DNA of 47,189 nt, from positions 1 through 47,189 of the forward strand of contig CAZJJC010000233.1 in assembly GCA_964546195.1 (NCBI GenBank), in the 5' to 3' direction. The translations under genes and the position numbers were made by a program. Every line of letters starts with the position of its first letter. The stretch's first letter is position 1. Shown here piece after piece: positions 1 to 7,098 of this stretch. The notes under the pieces are model-generated. The model was not told where the DNA came from and did not search any database. It was given only the letters and a program-made list of their open reading frames with translations. The stretch comes from an uncultured Enterobacteriaceae bacterium (lineage in GTDB: Bacteria > Pseudomonadota > Gammaproteobacteria > Burkholderiales > SG8-39).

Positions 1-657
1 AGCATCCCCGAGGGATTCGAGTTCCGCGTCGTCCACGGCCCCACGGGCAGCGGCAAGAGCCGCCTGCTCGGCGCGCTGCGCAGGGCCGGCGCGCAGGTGC
101 TCGACCTGGAGGAGCTCGCCGCGCACCGCGGCTCGGTGCTCGGCAACCTGCCGGGCCGCCCGCAGCCTTCGCAGAAGTGGTTCGAAAGTCAGCTGCTCGC
201 TGCGCTGAGCGCTCTGGACGCCGCAAGGCCGGTGTTCGTGGAGGGCGAATCGAAGAAGATCGGGCAGCTGCAGGTGCCCGAGGCGCTGATCGCGCGCATG
301 CGGGCCTCGCGCTGCCTGCGCATAGAAGCCGCGCTGGAAGCGCGCGTGACGCTGCTGCTGGAGGAGTACCGGCATTTCCTCGCCGACCGCGGCTTGCTCG
401 AGGCGCAGCTCGACTGCCTGGCCGGCCTGCACGGCCGCGAGAAGATCGGCGCGTGGAAGGCGCTTGCCGCGCGGGGCGCCTGGCGCGAGCTCGTCGCCCG
501 GCTGCTCGGCGAGCATTACGACCCGGCCTACCGGCGCTCCTCGCTGAAGAACTTCACCCGCATGCCCGAAGCGCAAAGCGTGCGGCTGGACTCGGCTGAC
601 GAGAAGGCGTTCGCAGGCGCCGCCGACCGCATACTGGACGAGAGGGTTTCGGCGTGA
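1..657 (+). CDS. selU: tRNA 2-selenouridine synthase, C-terminal part (5' end lies outside the window)
   Basis: Frame 1 is open from base 1. The translation SIPEGFEFRVVHGPTGSGKSRLLG... has a Walker A P-loop followed by a SelU/MnmH(YbbB)-like C-terminal region. Stop TGA at 655-657. Confidence 0.8.
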   Translation, partial: SIPEGFEFRVVHGPTGSGKSRLLGALRRAGAQVLDLEELAAHRGSVLGNLPGRPQPSQKWFESQLLAALSALDAARPVFVEGESKKIGQLQVPEALIARMRASRCLRIEAALEARVTLLLEEYRHFLADRGLLEAQLDCLAGLHGREKIGAWKALAARGAWRELVARLLGEHYDPAYRRSSLKNFTRMPEAQSVRLDSADEKAFAGAADRILDERVSA

Positions 658-1304
658 ACCGCGCGGTGATTCTGGCGGCGCTGGCGGCCGCGATGCCGGC
701 GATTGCACAAATTCCGCCGAGTCCCGCGGAAATTCAGCGCTACACCGGATTGCATCGCGCCGCGGCGAGCGGCGATGTCGCGCACATCAAGGCATCTCCA
801 ACCGTGGAATCCCGTGACGCGCACGGCCGCACGCCTTTGCACGTCGCCGCGTACCGCGGCAAGCACGCGGCGATGCGCGCCCTGGTCAACGCGGGCGCCG
901 ACCCGAACGCGCTCGAGAATGACCGCTACGACATCGTGACGATCGCCGCGGTGGCAAACGACCTGCCCACGCTTAGGCTCGCGCTGGAGCTGGGGGCGAG
1001 CGCGGAGAACATCACCAGCCGCTATGACGGCACGGCGCTCATCGCCGCAGCGCACCTGGGCCATGCCGATGTGGTGCGCGCGCTGATCCACGCCGGCGCG
1101 CCGCTCGACCGCGTCAACAATCTCGGATGGACTGCGCTGATGGAATCGATCGTGCTAGGCGACGGCGGCCCGCGCCATGTGGACACGCTCAGGGTGCTGC
1201 TAGAGGCGGGCGCCGATGCAAGCCTGCCGGACCGTAATGGCGTGACGCCGCTGCAGCACGCCCAGCGGCGCGGTTATGTGCAGATGGTGAAACTTCTCAA
1301 ATGA
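654..1304 (+). CDS. secreted ankyrin-repeat protein
   Basis: GTG start overlaps the selU stop (GTGA). N-terminal signal-like segment MNRAVILAALAAAMPAIAQ. Repeated ankyrin motifs (GRTPLHVAAYRGKHAAMRALVNAGADPN, GTALIAAAHLGHADVVRALIHAGAPLD, GVTPLQHAQRRGY). Confidence 0.85.
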   Translation: MNRAVILAALAAAMPAIAQIPPSPAEIQRYTGLHRAAASGDVAHIKASPTVESRDAHGRTPLHVAAYRGKHAAMRALVNAGADPNALENDRYDIVTIAAVANDLPTLRLALELGASAENITSRYDGTALIAAAHLGHADVVRALIHAGAPLDRVNNLGWTALMESIVLGDGGPRHVDTLRVLLEAGADASLPDRNGVTPLQHAQRRGYVQMVKLLK

Positions 1305-1326
1305 GAAAAATGCGGTACGTCCCCAT

Positions 1327-2313: not shown

Positions 2314-3261
2314 ATGCTGCTAAAGGCCGAATTCCATTCACAAAACCTCGCGCGCGGGCCGATCCAGCGCGTGATCGAGGCGGCCGGCAGCATCATCCTG
2401 GGCAAGGAAACCCAGGTGCGCCTCGCGCTCGCCTGCATGCTGGCGCGCGGCCACCTGCTGATCGAGGACCTGCCCGGCGTGGGCAAGACCACGCTCGCGC
2501 ATGTCCTCGCCCGCTCGCTCGGCCTGCAGTTCCAGCGCATCCAGTTCACGAGCGACATGCTGCCCGCGGACATCATCGGCGTCTCGGTCTACGAGCGCGA
2601 GACGGGCGCCTTCAAGTTCCACCCGGGCCCGATCTTTGCCCAGGTCATCCTCGCCGACGAGGTGAACCGCGCCACGCCCAAGACGCAATCGGCGCTGCTC
2701 GAGGCGATGGAGGAGCACCAGGTCACGGCCGAGGGCGAGACGCGCAAGCTGCCCTCGCCCTTTTTCGTCATCGCCACGCAGAATCCTTCCGAGCAGGTCG
2801 GCACCTTCCCTCTGCCCGAGTCGCAGCTCGACCGCTTCACCATGCGCATCGAGCTCGGCTACCCGGACCGCGCCGCCGAGCGCGCGCTCCTGCTGGGGAC
2901 CGACCGGCGCGACCTGCTCGCGACGCTCGAGCCGTCGATGACACCGGCCGAGCTGATGGAGCTGCAGGCGGGCGTGCAGCGCATCTACGTCGCGCCCGCG
3001 CTGCTCGACTACGTGCAGGCGATCGTCGAGCATACCCGCCGCTCGCCGAACTACGTCGCCGGGCTCTCGCCGCGCGCGGCGCTCGCGCTGGTGCACTGCG
3101 CGCGCGCCTGGGCGCTGCTCGAGGGGCGCGACAAGGTGCTGCCGGAAGACGTGCAGGCCATCGTCCCGGGCGCGGCCGCGCACCGCCTGCGCCCGGCGCA
3201 CGACTCCTCGCGCCGCGTCGACGTCGGCGCGCAATTGCTCGCCGCCGTACCGATCCCTTAG
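2314..3261 (+). CDS. MoxR-like AAA+ ATPase
   Basis: Walker A LPGVGKTTLA, Walker B ILADEVNRATPKTQSALLEAMEE, and FFVIATQNP...LPESQLDRF, typical of the MoxR/AAA_3 family. Confidence 0.9.
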   Translation: MLLKAEFHSQNLARGPIQRVIEAAGSIILGKETQVRLALACMLARGHLLIEDLPGVGKTTLAHVLARSLGLQFQRIQFTSDMLPADIIGVSVYERETGAFKFHPGPIFAQVILADEVNRATPKTQSALLEAMEEHQVTAEGETRKLPSPFFVIATQNPSEQVGTFPLPESQLDRFTMRIELGYPDRAAERALLLGTDRRDLLATLEPSMTPAELMELQAGVQRIYVAPALLDYVQAIVEHTRRSPNYVAGLSPRAALALVHCARAWALLEGRDKVLPEDVQAIVPGAAAHRLRPAHDSSRRVDVGAQLLAAVPIP

Positions 3262-3262
3262 C

Positions 3263-3279
3263 AGACCCCGGCGGGGTCT
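3263..3279 (+). terminator. hairpin immediately after the moxR stop (weak terminator candidate)
   Basis: AGACCCC-GGC-GGGGTCT gives a 7-bp stem with a 3-nt loop, starting 2 nt after the TAG. It is followed only by a short TT, so this is not a strong intrinsic terminator. Confidence 0.35.
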
Positions 3280-3332
3280 TCACGAGCACCCCGCTGCGAT
3301 CAAATGAAATCGCGCGGCGCGGCGGCCGAGTT

Positions 3333-3364
3333 TGTTGACATGTCAACATTTTTCCACTTATATT
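3333..3364 (+). promoter_or_regulatory. sigma70-like promoter with overlapping 16-bp palindromic operator
   Basis: Perfect palindrome TGTTGACATGTCAACA (3333-3348) contains TTGACA (3335-3340). An 18-nt spacer leads to TATATT (3359-3364), which ends 7 nt before the ATG at 3372. No Shine-Dalgarno sequence is visible. Confidence 0.5.
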
Positions 3365-3371
3365 CGACAGC

Positions 3372-3752
3372 ATGAAACGCCCCGACCGGCGCGCCCAGCT
3401 GCGCGAAGCGAAGCGCGCCCAGCGCCGTCGCGAGCGCCGCGCGGGACTCGCGCCCGTGCAGCTGCGCCTGCCGCGCGCCCTGGGCGCAAAGCTGCTGCAC
3501 GCCAGCCACGACGCGGGCTTTGCCGGGGAGCTGGACCGGTTCCTCGACGGGCTGCTCGTCCGCGTTGCGGACTACCCCGCGCTTGCTGAGCTCGCCTGGA
3601 ACCGGGCGGAAGATCTGATGCCCGCGCGCGACGCCTTCGGCCTGTACGAGCGCAACTGGCGTTTCGTCGACGCTGCGCGTCTTACGTCCGGGGAGCGCGC
3701 GCTGATCGGGCGGCTCGCCGAGCGCTACGGCGGAGGCTTGCTCAATGCCTGA
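3372..3752 (+). CDS. small basic protein with a ribbon-helix-helix-like N-terminus (putative antitoxin/regulator)
   Basis: 126-aa ORF with an Arg/Lys-rich N-terminus, then VQLRLPRALGAKLL (a strand-helix pattern typical of RHH) and an unassigned C-terminal domain. It overlaps the downstream ORF by 8 nt. Confidence 0.6.
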   Translation: MKRPDRRAQLREAKRAQRRRERRAGLAPVQLRLPRALGAKLLHASHDAGFAGELDRFLDGLLVRVADYPALAELAWNRAEDLMPARDAFGLYERNWRFVDAARLTSGERALIGRLAERYGGGLLNA

Positions 3753-4467
3753 GTTCCGCAAGCCGCATCACCGCGCGGTGGCGCGCATGCTCGCGGCCTT
3801 CGACGCCGGCTTCCTCGGGCGCGCCGCTTGCTATTTCGGCGGCGGCACGCAGATCGCGCTGTCGCTCGGCGAGTTCCGCGAGTCGCGCGACATCGATTTC
3901 CTGTGCTCGAGCCGCACCGGCTTCCGGCTGCTGCGCGAAACGGTAGCCTCGGACTCGCTCGGCGCGCTCCTCAGCAGGCCGCTCGAGCTGGCGCGCGAGG
4001 TGCGTGCCGACCGCGACGGCGTGCGCACGTTCCTCGGCGCCGGCGAGGTGCGCATCAAGCTCGAGGTCGTGTTCGAGGCGCGCATCGAGCTAAGCGGGCA
4101 GCTCGATCGCAAGCTCGGCGTTCCGACGCTCGACCTGGCGAGCGCGGTGGCGGAGAAGTTTCTGGCCAACGCCGACCGCGGGCTCGACGAGTCTACCGGG
4201 TCGAGGGACATCGTCGACCTGGCCTTCCTCGCCGCCGCCCACGGCCCGAAGGCGCTCGAGCCGGGCTACCGCCTGGCCGAGGCGGCGTACGGCAAAGCGG
4301 TTCCCAGGTACGCCCGCCTGGTGCTGGACAAGTTCGCCGCCGAGCGGCGCTATGCCGCGCGTTGCGCGCGCGCGCTCGGAGTCGCCGACATCGCCACCCT
4401 GAGGAAAGGGCTCGTCCTGCTGCGCGGTTTCGCGCCCCCGGCGAAACGCGCCGGAAGAAGCGGGTGA
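3745..4467 (+). CDS. AbiEii/DUF1814-family nucleotidyltransferase (putative type IV TA toxin)
   Basis: 240-aa ORF with a pol-beta NTase-type motif (YFGGGTQIALSLGEFRESRDIDF), then IKLEVV, then AEKFLANADRG...SRDIVDLAFL. This order matches the AbiEii family motifs as I recall them. Confidence 0.7.
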   Translation: MPEFRKPHHRAVARMLAAFDAGFLGRAACYFGGGTQIALSLGEFRESRDIDFLCSSRTGFRLLRETVASDSLGALLSRPLELAREVRADRDGVRTFLGAGEVRIKLEVVFEARIELSGQLDRKLGVPTLDLASAVAEKFLANADRGLDESTGSRDIVDLAFLAAAHGPKALEPGYRLAEAAYGKAVPRYARLVLDKFAAERRYAARCARALGVADIATLRKGLVLLRGFAPPAKRAGRSG

Positions 4468-4548
4468 ACGACACATTCCTTGGGTAGAATCCGCTGTTCC
4501 GCGCGCCGACCGTACTGAAGCCGGAACAGCGCCGCGCGGAAAAATTCC

Positions 4549-7098
4549 ATGCCCTCAGGTACCCGCTACTTCCTGGAAGTCAATCCCCGCGTTCCCAAGC
4601 GCCTCGCGCGCATGGGCGAGCTCGCCAACAACCTCTGGTACAGCTGGGACCGCCCGACGCGGGCGCTGTTCGCCAAGCTGAATCCCGCTTTGTGGGAGGC
4701 GGTGGGCCACAGCCCCAAGGCGATGCTCAAGCGCATCGACGAGCAGCGCCTCATCGACGCGGCCACCGACCCGGCCTTCCTCGACAGCCTGACCCGCGTG
4801 CTGGCGGCCTTCGACGCCTATCACGCCGAGCCGCCCTTCAAGCAGAACGCCGACCGCGTGGCGCGCGAGGACGTGGTGGCCTACTTCTGCGCCGAGTTCG
4901 GCGTGCACGAGAGCCTGCCCATCTACTCGGGCGGCCTGGGCATCCTCGCCGGCGACCACTGCAAGGCGGCGAGCGACTTCCAGCTGCCTTTCGTGGCCGT
5001 CGGCCTGCTCTACCGCCAGGGCTATTTCACGCAGACCATCGACGGCGAGGGCCGGCAGCGCGCCGAGTACTCCGACTCGGACTTCGACGACCTGCCGATC
5101 GAGCCGGTGAAGCGCAGGGACGGCGGCGAGCTCAGCGTCGAGCTGGTGCTTCCCGGGCGCAGGCTCCTGGTGAAGGTGTGGCAGGCGCGCGTCGGCCACG
5201 TCACGCTGTACCTGCTCGACACCGATCTGCCGGAGAACAGCGAGCGCGACCGCGACATCGCGCATCGCCTGTACGGCGGCGACCGCACCACGCGCCTCGA
5301 GCAGGAGATGGTGCTCGGCGTGGGCGGCATGCGCGCGCTCGCCGCCATGGAGCTCAAGCCCTCGGTGTGGCACATCAATGAAGGCCATGCGGCCTTCCTG
5401 GTGCTGGAGCGCGCGCGCGCGCTGGTGCTGGAAGGGCTGTCGCTCGAGGCCGCCATCGAGGTGGTGGCGTCGAACACGGTTTTCACCACGCACACGCCGG
5501 TGCCGGCGGGGCACGACCAGTTCAACGACGCCACCGTCGTGCCCTACCTGCGCAGCTGCTTTGCCGAGCTCGGCCCGCCCGAGAAAGTGGCGGCGCTGGC
5601 GCGCCCGCCTGCGGGCGGCGACTTCAACATGACCGCGCTGGCGATCCGCGGCTCGCGCCACAACAACGGCGTGTCGCGCATCCACGGCGGGGTCTCGCAG
5701 CGCCTGCTGCACGACTTCTGGCCGCAGGTGCCGCCCGAGGAGAACCCGGTGGGCTACATCACCAACGGGGTGCACGTCGCCACCTTCCTCGCGCCCGAAT
5801 GGAGCGAAGTACTCGACCGTTTCCTCGGCGTGGGCTGGATGCACCGCCTGGGCTACCCCGGCATCTGGGAAAAGATCCGCGGCATCCCCGACCACATCTT
5901 CTGGAGCGTGCGCCAGGACATCAAGGCGCGCATGCTGTACATGGTGCGCCATCGCTTTGCGGGGCAGCACACGCGCAACCACGGCAGCGAGTCGCACCTC
6001 GAGCGCCTGCTGCGCTACGCCGATCCCGCGAAACCGAACGTGCTGACGATCGGCTTCGGCCGGCGCTTCGCCACCTACAAGCGCGCCACGCTGCTGTTCA
6101 ACGACATGGAGCGCCTGGCGCGCATCGTCGGGGACCGCGAGCGTCCGGTGCTGTTCCTGTTCGCCGGCAAGGCCCACCCTGCCGACGAGCCGGGCCAGGA
6201 GCTGATTCGCGCCATCGCGCAGATGTCGCAGGCGCCGGAGTTCGAGGGCCGCATCCTGTTCCTCGAGGGCTACGACCTGCACCTCGCACGCCGCCTGGTA
6301 TCGGGCGTCGACGTCTGGCTCAACAACCCGGTCTATCCGCTGGAAGCCTCCGGCACCTCGGGGATGAAAGCCGGCATGAACGGCGTGCTGAACCTCTCGA
6401 TCCGCGACGGCTGGTGGGACGAGGGCTACGACGGCGACAACGGCTTCGCGATCAAGCCGGGCTCGCCCGAGCTCGAGCCGCAGCGCCGCGACCGCGAAGA
6501 AGCGCGCACCCTCTACGAGATCCTGCAGGACCGCGTCGTGCCGCTGTACTACAACCGCTCGAACGGCGGCTACTCGCCCGAGTGGATCCGCCTCGCGAAA
6601 CGCTCCATGGCCTCGCTGCTGCCGCGCTACGACGCCTCCCGCATGCTCGGGGAATACGTTTCCAAATACTACCTCCCGGCGGCGCGCCAGGGGCGCAGGT
6701 ATGCCGACCAGGCCTACCAGGGCGCAAAGGCGGTGGCGGCGTGGAAAGCCAAGGTGCGCGCCGCCTGGTCCGGAGTCGCCGCGCGCCGCCTCGATACGCC
6801 GAGGAGCCGCATCCAGTTCGGCGAGAGCATCCCGGTGGAAATCGCCGTGAAGCTGAACGGGCTGTCACCCGCCGACGTGTGCGTGGAGCTGCTGCTGACG
6901 CGCGGGCTGCGCGAGACGCCGGTGGTGCAGCACAGCCACGAGCTTGCCGCCGACGGCACGCTCGACGGCGGCGAGCAGCGCTTCCGGCTCGACCTCAAGC
7001 CGGGTCTCGCCGGCCGGCTGGACTACCGCATCCGCATCTTTCCGCACCACGAGCTGCTCACCCACCCGTTCGAGCTGGGCCTGACCTGTTGGGTTTGA
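4549..7098 (+). CDS. glgP: alpha-glucan (glycogen/maltodextrin) phosphorylase, GT35, DUF3417-type N-terminus
   Basis: 849-aa ORF with N-terminal NLWYSWD and the PLP-lysine region LEASGTSGMKAGMNGVLNLSIRDGWW. Confidence 0.9.
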   Translation: MPSGTRYFLEVNPRVPKRLARMGELANNLWYSWDRPTRALFAKLNPALWEAVGHSPKAMLKRIDEQRLIDAATDPAFLDSLTRVLAAFDAYHAEPPFKQNADRVAREDVVAYFCAEFGVHESLPIYSGGLGILAGDHCKAASDFQLPFVAVGLLYRQGYFTQTIDGEGRQRAEYSDSDFDDLPIEPVKRRDGGELSVELVLPGRRLLVKVWQARVGHVTLYLLDTDLPENSERDRDIAHRLYGGDRTTRLEQEMVLGVGGMRALAAMELKPSVWHINEGHAAFLVLERARALVLEGLSLEAAIEVVASNTVFTTHTPVPAGHDQFNDATVVPYLRSCFAELGPPEKVAALARPPAGGDFNMTALAIRGSRHNNGVSRIHGGVSQRLLHDFWPQVPPEENPVGYITNGVHVATFLAPEWSEVLDRFLGVGWMHRLGYPGIWEKIRGIPDHIFWSVRQDIKARMLYMVRHRFAGQHTRNHGSESHLERLLRYADPAKPNVLTIGFGRRFATYKRATLLFNDMERLARIVGDRERPVLFLFAGKAHPADEPGQELIRAIAQMSQAPEFEGRILFLEGYDLHLARRLVSGVDVWLNNPVYPLEASGTSGMKAGMNGVLNLSIRDGWWDEGYDGDNGFAIKPGSPELEPQRRDREEARTLYEILQDRVVPLYYNRSNGGYSPEWIRLAKRSMASLLPRYDASRMLGEYVSKYYLPAARQGRRYADQAYQGAKAVAAWKAKVRAAWSGVAARRLDTPRSRIQFGESIPVEIAVKLNGLSPADVCVELLLTRGLRETPVVQHSHELAADGTLDGGEQRFRLDLKPGLAGRLDYRIRIFPHHELLTHPFELGLTCWV

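Follow-up and report, generated by a model that had tools for sequence, protein, structure and literature searches.

A probable autoregulated AbiE/MenAT-type toxin–antitoxin cassette whose predicted antitoxin joins a YbfE-like DNA-binding head to a short AbiEi-like domain

Toxins of the DUF1814/MenT group make up a large tRNA-inactivating family with relevance to phage defence and to the physiology of Mycobacterium tuberculosis, and a central question of the field is how one catalytic core is controlled by unrelated antitoxins. The toxin of the AbiE systems, AbiEii, is defined by motifs I and II, hG[G/S]x15DhD with an arginine in motif II, by a motif III of the form K..R and by an aspartate in motif IV (Dy 2014, PMC3985639). 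In the related toxins MenT1 and MenT3, residues T39 and S78 respectively are regulatory phosphoacceptors that lie two residues before the first catalytic aspartate (PMC11375011, PMC10435456). Here we describe two adjacent open reading frames (ORFs) on contig CAZJJC010000233.1, which was analysed as a whole stretch of 47,189 nt (the window): the first encodes a protein of 126 amino acids (A) and the second a protein of 240 amino acids (T). We read this locus, with a probability of about three in four, as a self-contained and autoregulated toxin–antitoxin (TA) cassette of the AbiE/MenAT type, in which we infer the toxicity of T, its neutralisation, DNA binding by A and the position of the transcription start.

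The antitoxin-first pair belongs to a catalogued family, as PADLOC would label A and T together as AbiE. It extends the AbiE/MenAT kind and overturns nothing, because the established logic of these systems fits and PADLOC already captures the pair. The locus shows what defines a TA module genetically, namely adjacent and co-oriented small genes, co-conservation in both directions, variable contexts, and orphans that are antitoxins only. Both ORFs reported by a first-pass annotation of this DNA are present on the plus strand, and their 8-nt overlap reads ATGCCTGA (Table 1). No published description of the antitoxin family, of its fusion to a ribbon-helix-helix (RHH) domain or of its operator was found in a literature coverage that was incomplete, and this counts as absence of evidence only.

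Two sets of loci were compared, one of 80 genome loci found with A as the seed (254 species matched) and one of 80 metagenome loci found with T. A homologue of T lies immediately downstream of A and on the same strand in 71/80 A-seeded loci, and A lies upstream of T in 61/61 T-seeded loci that have at least 420 nt of upstream sequence; the two genes are thus co-conserved in other genomes, where a lack of co-conservation would have refuted the first-pass annotation. The 8-nt overlap is retained in 58 of 70 loci, and when loci are taken in pairs the flanks have no genes in common in 97.8% of cases and are shared in 2.2%.

T matches the Pfam family AbiEii (PF08843) with E = 6.4e-22 and 79.1 bits, against a gathering cut-off of 22.5 bits, and the PADLOC AbiEii model PDLC02298 with E = 1.9e-67. 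The assignment to AbiEii/DUF1814 that had been made from the letters, with a profile search named as its check, therefore holds, and homologues of T at NCBI and JGI carry the name 'nucleotidyl transferase AbiEii/AbiGii toxin family protein'. Residue conservation was judged in 61 locus-derived and 28 database homologues. Invariant among these are G33-G34-T35, R45-E46-S47, D49, K105/E107, E137-K138, D144-R145 and R154-D155..D158, with D51 conserved in at least 90%; the toxin segments quoted earlier are real and fall in invariant columns. T carries the published AbiEii motif set, that is hG[G/S]x15DhD, a motif-II arginine four residues before the first aspartate and a downstream aspartate, and the seven-residue spacing of K138 and R145 equals that of AbiEii K173 and R180 (PMC3985639). 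The AlphaFold2 (AF2) model of T, with a predicted local distance difference test score (pLDDT) of 95, has a MenT-like bi-lobed nucleotidyltransferase (NTase) fold, for which the top Foldseek matches were JHP933 (4ok0/4o8s) and MenT1 (8an5_B) at a probability of 1.00 and template modelling (TM) scores of 0.42–0.56. Sequence searches of the PDB gave no match for T beyond JHP933, which was seen by profile. T is a genuine member of the AbiEii/DUF1814 nucleotidyltransferases. Judged by MenT1 and MenT3, its analogues, it is most likely a toxin that adds nucleotides to tRNA 3' ends and would in this way block translation.

The S47-x-D49-x-D51 stretch of T parallels T39-D41-D43 of MenT1 and S78-D80 of MenT3. 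Given that T39A and S78A mutants of these toxins remain toxic (PMC10435456), the invariance of S47 is easier to reconcile with regulation than with catalysis. T35 of the GGT motif was discarded as the candidate phosphoacceptor; the position of MenT1 T39 and MenT3 S78 corresponds to S47.

The AF2 model of A (pLDDT 89) comprises a basic helix (residues 6–23), an extended segment (24–34), two helices (35–44 and 50–61) and a separate C-terminal domain of beta-alpha-beta-alpha-alpha form (residues 62–119). The N-terminal half is related to YbfE of Escherichia coli: the NCBIfam model PRK11675 (YbfE) matches 29 of 30 members of the A family (best E = 2.2e-14), and hhalign of the A family profile with the real E. 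coli YbfE (b0685) gave a probability of 96.5% and E = 1e-9. As RefSeq names b0685 a 'ribbon-helix-helix domain-containing protein', this homology agrees with the RHH-like N-terminus proposed earlier, and the extended segment occupies the expected position of the RHH strand in the AF2 monomer. In E. coli K-12 (NC_000913, 711605–711898; our L163) ybfE encodes a product of 97 amino acids that is described as a 'LexA regulated' RHH protein. The operator of the present locus, ATGtTGACATGTCAtCAT, could hint at the type of site that YbfE-type proteins bind; such a palindrome was not seen in the 140 nt upstream of E. coli ybfE.

The C-terminal domain of A, previously left unassigned, is covered by the PADLOC model PDLC02278 'AbiEi' (66 positions), which matches residues 63–125 at model positions 3–65 with E = 1.2e-25. 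The suggestion of an uncharacterised antitoxin class stands, as far as found, in the experimental sense; the class is not an unrecognised one, since PADLOC lists the core domain as AbiEi. Residues W76, L91-Y92-E93 and N95-W96-R97 of this domain are invariant. Pfam gave no match to A at E <= 1, and 30 relatives were likewise without a Pfam family, the AbiEi families included; searches of the PDB with the single sequence and with the profile returned nothing, and Foldseek found no significant match to the A model in the PDB or BFVD. MDM2-like folds, the best Foldseek matches at a probability of 0.1, were taken as noise. As far as these tools see, the absence of a Foldseek match makes the C-domain unlike the C-terminal domain of AbiEi/MenA4 and unlike MenA1. 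By comparison with the canonical AbiEi/MenA3/MenA4 antitoxins (COG5340), A is only 126 amino acids long, has no AbiEi Pfam domain and has no sequence or fold match in the PDB. A MenA1-type assignment was not obtained either: a PDB profile search that included 8AN5 gave nothing at E <= 10 beyond chance and Foldseek gave no match, a negative of moderate weight as short helical targets are hard for Foldseek. The C-domain is also predicted by AF2 to contain strands, unlike the two-helix MenA1.

Clustered at 90% identity, the A family falls into about 198 groups, and an exhaustive HMMER search gave 883 clusters at 50% identity. Its members occur in the genomes of at least 254 species, and cultured Burkholderia, Xanthomonas and Rhizobium carry them on plasmids. 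Full-length two-domain proteins account for approximately one-third of the top 150 clusters, and most of the rest are standalone C-domains of 65–100 amino acids, which PDLC02278 matches end to end; some members carry XRE-type helix-turn-helix (HTH) heads (HTH_31/HTH_3) in place of the RHH. Standalone C-domain proteins of 65–68 amino acids adjoin AbiEii genes, as do XRE-HTH fusions, and on plasmids of Paraburkholderia, Xanthomonas, Burkholderia, Rhizobium and Mycolicibacterium a C-domain protein, either standalone or HTH-fused, lies directly upstream of AbiEii/AbiGii genes under the label 'hypothetical protein' or 'helix-turn-helix transcriptional regulator'. Because standalone, RHH-fused and XRE-HTH-fused forms all adjoin AbiEii genes, comparison of their sequences identifies the C-domain as the partner that always accompanies the toxin, and the DNA-binding head as the exchangeable part of a modular antitoxin.

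Three proteins of the C-domain family have odd architectures: P0366 (386 amino acids), P0308 (244) and P0268 (380). Ankyrin repeats form the N-terminus of one, a weak DUF6088-like N-terminus is seen in another, and the third matches the profile over two stretches; they could be true fusions or the product of faulty gene calls. Within the coding sequence of A, at 3642–3738, there is a match to the Rfam ZMP/ZTP riboswitch of 22.9 bits against a gathering threshold of 39 bits (E = 0.51), which was taken as chance; beyond this sub-threshold match Rfam and tRNA scans gave nothing, and no tRNA.

The perfect 16-bp palindrome TGTTGACATGTCAACA noted earlier upstream of A, the TTGACA -35 box it contains and the distance of 18 nt from this box to TATATT were all confirmed. 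TGTTGACATGTCAACA is found once in the 47-kb window even with three mismatches (chance expectation 0.05), and the stretch from 3000 to 4800 has no sigma-70-like site other than TTGACA-18-TATATT (11/12 positions, versus 0.0 in shuffles). The palindrome is conserved across distant genomes, with the family consensus tATGtTGACATGTCAtCATaa and the core TGACATGTCA, which points to an operator as had been suggested. Allowing at most one mismatch, the core is present upstream of A in 60 of the 80 genome loci, against a background of 4 per 438 kb, and in 48 of 55 two-domain metagenome loci; when loci were divided by architecture it was found at 108/127 with two domains and at 0/14 without the N-domain. 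This covariation is the main argument for binding of the palindrome by the YbfE-like domain. On this comparative evidence A very probably represses its own leaderless promoter: its RHH domain, probably dimeric and with basic arms, would occupy the 16–18-bp palindrome over the -35 box and so repress the operon.

The leaderless nature of this promoter is suggested by its geometry. TATATT ends 7 nt before the ATG of A, a gap that no Shine–Dalgarno (SD) sequence fits, in keeping with the earlier remark that none is present. Across the family, an in-frame start codon lies 34–36 nt past the operator core in 53 of 61 loci (45 ATG, 8 GTG), a -10-like element of the form xAxxxT follows TTGACA at 17 nt, its end being 6 nt away from the start codon, and an SD-like motif precedes the antitoxin in just 10 of the 61 operator-bearing loci. 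The start-codon spacing and the -10 geometry place transcription initiation on the start codon, and the predicted start is at or next to A3372 with the antitoxin mRNA probably leaderless; the first-pass annotation had already suspected a leaderless operon, and conservation of the geometry across distant genomes gives that suspicion comparative support. At the antitoxin–toxin junction a ATGNNTGA/TAA/TAG-type overlap predominates and an SD-like motif precedes the toxin in only 9 of 85 relatives. Although the window has GGAGG 8 nt upstream of the toxin start, a conserved toxin SD was rejected on this last count. The conserved ATGNNTGA-type overlap, together with the lack of a conserved SD, indicates a probable coupling of toxin translation to antitoxin translation: on an mRNA beginning at the A of the antitoxin ATG, the toxin would be read via the ATGNNTGA overlap and its synthesis would follow antitoxin translation.

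Loci from Vicinamibacterales (Acidobacteriota; L044, L046, L053, L057, L064–L066 and L071) have the operator variant GATGACATGTCATC and a start codon at a distance other than the 34–36 nt typical of most Proteobacteria, and a gap of 60–160 nt between antitoxin and toxin replaces the 8-nt overlap. They look like a branch of this family in which the wiring is different.

Table 1. Coordinates of the cassette and its parts in the 47,189-nt window
Feature	Position	Strand	Description
Antitoxin gene A	3372..3752	+	ORF, 126 amino acids; leaderless translation probable
A N-terminal half, residues 1–61	3372..3554	+	Basic arm and YbfE-like ribbon-helix-helix DNA-binding domain (predicted)
A C-terminal domain, residues 62–126	3555..3749	+	Short 'AbiEi-like' domain, presumed neutraliser
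Toxin gene T	3745..4467	+	ORF, 240 amino acids; AbiEii/DUF1814 (MenT-like) nucleotidyltransferase
A/T overlap ATGCCTGA	3745..3752	+	8 nt; toxin start and antitoxin stop; translational coupling (probable)
Toxin motifs I–II	3835..3897	+	F31-G32-G33, x15, D49-I50-D51; R45; putative phosphoacceptor S47
Toxin motifs III–IV	4156..4218	+	K138...R145 (KFLANADR), R154-D155..D158; invariant columns
Operator (predicted), perfect 16-bp palindrome TGTTGACATGTCAACA	3333..3348	.	Contains -35 box; core at 3336–3345
Sigma-70-type promoter (predicted)	3335..3364	+	TTGACA 3335–3340 inside operator, 18-nt spacer, TATATT 3359–3364
Present/absent segment	3264..4472	.	Approximately 1,209 bp, with only CA/CA on its two sides; common to filled sites about 3333–4475

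The cassette lies between moxR and glgP, and the MoxR protein of the window clusters with proteins from Burkholderiales metagenome-assembled genomes. Four contigs (L164–L167) encode an identical MoxR protein with glgP 72 nt downstream and no cassette; blastn breakpoints show these empty sites to be 98–99% identical to the window in nucleotide sequence up to 3263 and again from 4473. Two further contigs, L168 (97.5%) and L169 (83%), are filled at this position. Both resemble the window from exactly the operator to about 8 nt past the toxin stop, with a moxR-to-operator spacer that differs in each, and a single ENA sample yielded one empty and one filled contig. In this Burkholderiales population the cassette is a strain-level presence/absence polymorphism, and it would move or be lost as a minimal unit reaching from the operator to the toxin stop. 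That the cassette was present ancestrally and was lost precisely from some strains is no less likely than that it was inserted recently, because the more divergent lineage is also filled and the GC content of the genes, which matches the flanks, agrees with this.

Two earlier arguments for an island fared less well, although the polymorphism itself is genuine. The AT-richer patch is limited to two intergenic spacers (GC 0.63), whereas the cassette genes (0.70–0.76) match their neighbours, and no recent transfer is indicated by composition. The hairpins thought to bracket the module are not its boundaries, as judged from the empty and filled sibling sites: that at 3264–3278 folds better than shuffles (z = -2.75) and is missing from the two closest cassette relatives at the same site, and that at 4492–4531 lacks significance (z = -0.79) and is part of the resident moxR–glgP spacer, because empty sites carry it too.

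This spacer (window 4476–4548; L164 6949–7020) has TTGGG(C)TAGAAT followed by an imperfect hairpin in filled and empty sites alike, which is probably the promoter or leader of glgP or the terminator of moxR; the cassette lies immediately upstream and leaves it intact. A second strain-specific indel was observed 2 kb upstream (window 624–1325). It contains an ORF (654–1304) for a 216-amino-acid ankyrin-repeat protein (Pfam Ank_2, E = 3e-33) that is missing in L164, L165 and L167, where window positions 623 and 1326 are 3 nt apart. The adjoining selU-like segment (19–623) is 92.9% identical versus 98.5% elsewhere, a drop that suggests a recombination boundary.

The main role of the cassette might be abortive-infection phage defence, as for lactococcal AbiE, and not that of a selfish addiction or stabilisation module, a view that we consider rather unlikely. 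Both proteins are filed under AbiE by PADLOC, AbiE systems can confer phage resistance (PMC3985639), and strain-level polymorphism within one population is often seen for defence genes. Against this, no defence genes were seen nearby, the flanks being moxR and the glycogen genes; relatives of the core domain reside on plasmids, for which stabilisation would be an equally good role; and no homologue was found among 50,697 phage records. The two roles are not mutually exclusive.

A precedent for how A would neutralise T is MenA1, which sequesters MenT1 and induces its auto-phosphorylation, S78 of MenT3 being phosphorylated likewise (PMC11375011). By this precedent the C-terminal domain of A, the core of the family at about 65 amino acids, would most likely neutralise T by direct binding, and possibly it also induces auto-phosphorylation of S47, as MenA1 does at T39 of MenT1. 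Several points weigh against our overall reading. The hhalign comparison of A with CopG and with Arc kept the right register and was not significant, with a probability below 1%; no RHH match to the A model was found in Foldseek; and the RHH assignment rests on homology to YbfE, for which the PDB copy searched contains no solved structure, no chain in it having matched the A family profile. The Fisher test on the covariation of operator and N-domain gave p = 1e-10, a value that is optimistic because the loci are phylogenetically related, and 19 of the 127 two-domain loci have no recognisable operator core. MenT1 was non-toxic in E. coli and MenT2 was without toxicity (PMC10435456), and toxicity is therefore host-dependent. 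Finally, AbiE of Streptococcus agalactiae was defined as a type IV system with no detectable toxin–antitoxin interaction (PMC3985639), such that direct binding is not guaranteed in this superfamily.

The definition of AbiE as non-interacting (PMC3985639) also favours a variant in which A forms no stable inhibitory complex and acts transiently, by phosphorylation of T as in type VII, or indirectly, on the target or on expression as in type IV. Co-expression of MenAT3 and of MenAT4 yielded no stable complex, MenT3 being phosphorylated (PMC11375011), and S47 is invariant at the position expected from SxDxD. We nevertheless hold this variant to be improbable. A domain of 65 amino acids without nucleotide-binding motifs would make an improbable enzyme, and MenT1, the nearest solved toxin fold with a known partner, is sequestered by a short antitoxin. 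In addition, the combination of a DNA-binding head with a small C-terminal domain is typical of modular antitoxins of the binding type (type II), and direct binding by the C-domain is the mechanism we prefer.

A more radical view would be that the pair is not a TA system, A being a mere transcription factor for T, which would then be a nucleotidyltransferase without toxicity that serves in housekeeping or resistance. Some DUF1814 proteins are indeed non-toxic (MenT2) or have no linked antitoxin, and resistance enzymes occur among the other pol-beta NTases in the tail of the Foldseek search with T. The way in which the pair decays makes this very improbable. In 9 of the 80 A-seeded loci A is an orphan or a pseudogene and in 8 more T is truncated, so that A occurs without T in 17 loci whereas T occurs without A in 0/61; this one-sided decay, with the antitoxin able to stand alone and the toxin never seen alone, is what a TA pair predicts. 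Furthermore, AbiEii genes keep the same C-domain partner whatever its DNA-binding head, and even when it is headless, the 8-nt coupling overlap is conserved, and the cassette moves alone without shared flanks. The loci with A kept and T truncated or gone (17/80) are L012, L026, L060, L063, L064, L070, L073 and L074, together with L004, L005, L011, L022, L023, L033, L040, L069 and L072; in L023 there are in-frame stops within the antitoxin gene itself. Orphan proteins with an RHH and a C-domain may be retained as regulators or as anti-addiction genes.

That the palindrome just makes a strong -35 region or is bound by a host factor such as LexA, as the consensus TTGACA inside it and the description of E. 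coli YbfE as 'LexA regulated' might suggest, is hardly credible given that its symmetry is conserved far past the hexamer (TGACATGTCA plus flanks) and is kept in the Vicinamibacterales variants in which the -35 is ATGACA, and that the motif is missing at every locus whose antitoxin is without the N-domain. Read from its sequence, the palindrome is also unlike the LexA box CTGT-N8-ACAG, which was rejected.

Returning to the cassette as an autoregulated TA module, we tentatively suggest, at somewhat less than even odds, that the C-domain of A represents a fourth and structurally new class of neutraliser for DUF1814/MenT toxins, distinct from COG5340, COG4861 and MenA1, which is swappable between RHH-fused, XRE-HTH-fused and headless forms, which in the RHH branch forms an SD-free, leaderless and coupled cassette with its operator fused to the -35 box, and which may force auto-phosphorylation of S47. 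The domain is very small, is predicted with confidence to fold and has no solved relative, and its natural domain-swap variants (standalone, RHH-fused and HTH-fused) cleanly separate neutralisation from regulation. The RHH branch, with a sharply defined operator and a conserved promoter of predicted leaderless type, offers a compact model of TA autoregulation.

Among described systems, AbiE of S. agalactiae and Lactococcus lactis (PMC3985639) is like the cassette in being bicistronic with the antitoxin first, in its DUF1814 NTase with motifs I–IV, and in an antitoxin with an N-terminal DNA-binding and a C-terminal neutralising domain, both of which are predicted here. AbiE is negatively autoregulated via inverted repeats over the -35 (PMC3985639), a box that the palindrome of the cassette also covers. 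It differs in that AbiEi, a winged-HTH protein of COG5340, binds two 23-bp repeats in monomeric form (PMC3985639), whereas the cassette has an antitoxin of 126 amino acids with a YbfE-like RHH head and an unrelated 65-amino-acid C-domain, a single palindrome of 16–18 bp and a predicted leaderless mRNA. MenAT1 of M. tuberculosis (Rv0078B/Rv0078A; PMC10435456, PMC11375011) resembles it in that MenT1 is among the two nearest toxin folds, that MenA1 is very short (68 amino acids) and that the toxins share an SxDxD or TxDxD active-site loop. MenA1, however, is a two-helix V-shape with no DNA-binding domain and there is no autoregulation, in contrast to a C-domain of predicted beta-alpha-beta-alpha-alpha form that has no PDB match and is joined to a predicted DNA-binding head whose operator is conserved. 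JHP933 of Helicobacter pylori (PDB 4o8s/4ok0) is the best match for T by profile (E = 5e-4) and by fold (TM 0.53–0.56); the GxT...SxDxD and K...RD motifs are common to both in the alignment at an identity of about 14%.

In PADLOC-DB v2, the models PDLC02278 and PDLC02298 match A and T strongly, but PDLC02278 covers the standalone C-domain only, and the RHH fusion, the operator and the leaderless arrangement fall outside the model. The type II systems with RHH antitoxins (RelBE, ParDE, CcdAB, FitAB) share with the cassette, as predicted here, an N-terminal RHH, a C-terminal toxin-binding part, a palindromic operator over the promoter and overlapping, translationally coupled genes. Their toxins are RNases or gyrase poisons where T is an NTase, the C-terminal part of their antitoxins is intrinsically disordered where the C-domain of A is predicted to be folded, and they do not have the basic N-terminal arm of about 25 residues, of YbfE type, that the RHH of A carries. 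E. coli YbfE (b0685) itself is like A over residues ~3–45, with the basic arm GRPxT..EQLRxAKRxQR, the strand and helix A. It differs as a standalone protein of 97 amino acids with no C-domain and no adjoining toxin gene, and the cassette offers a functional context for this enigmatic basic-arm RHH domain.

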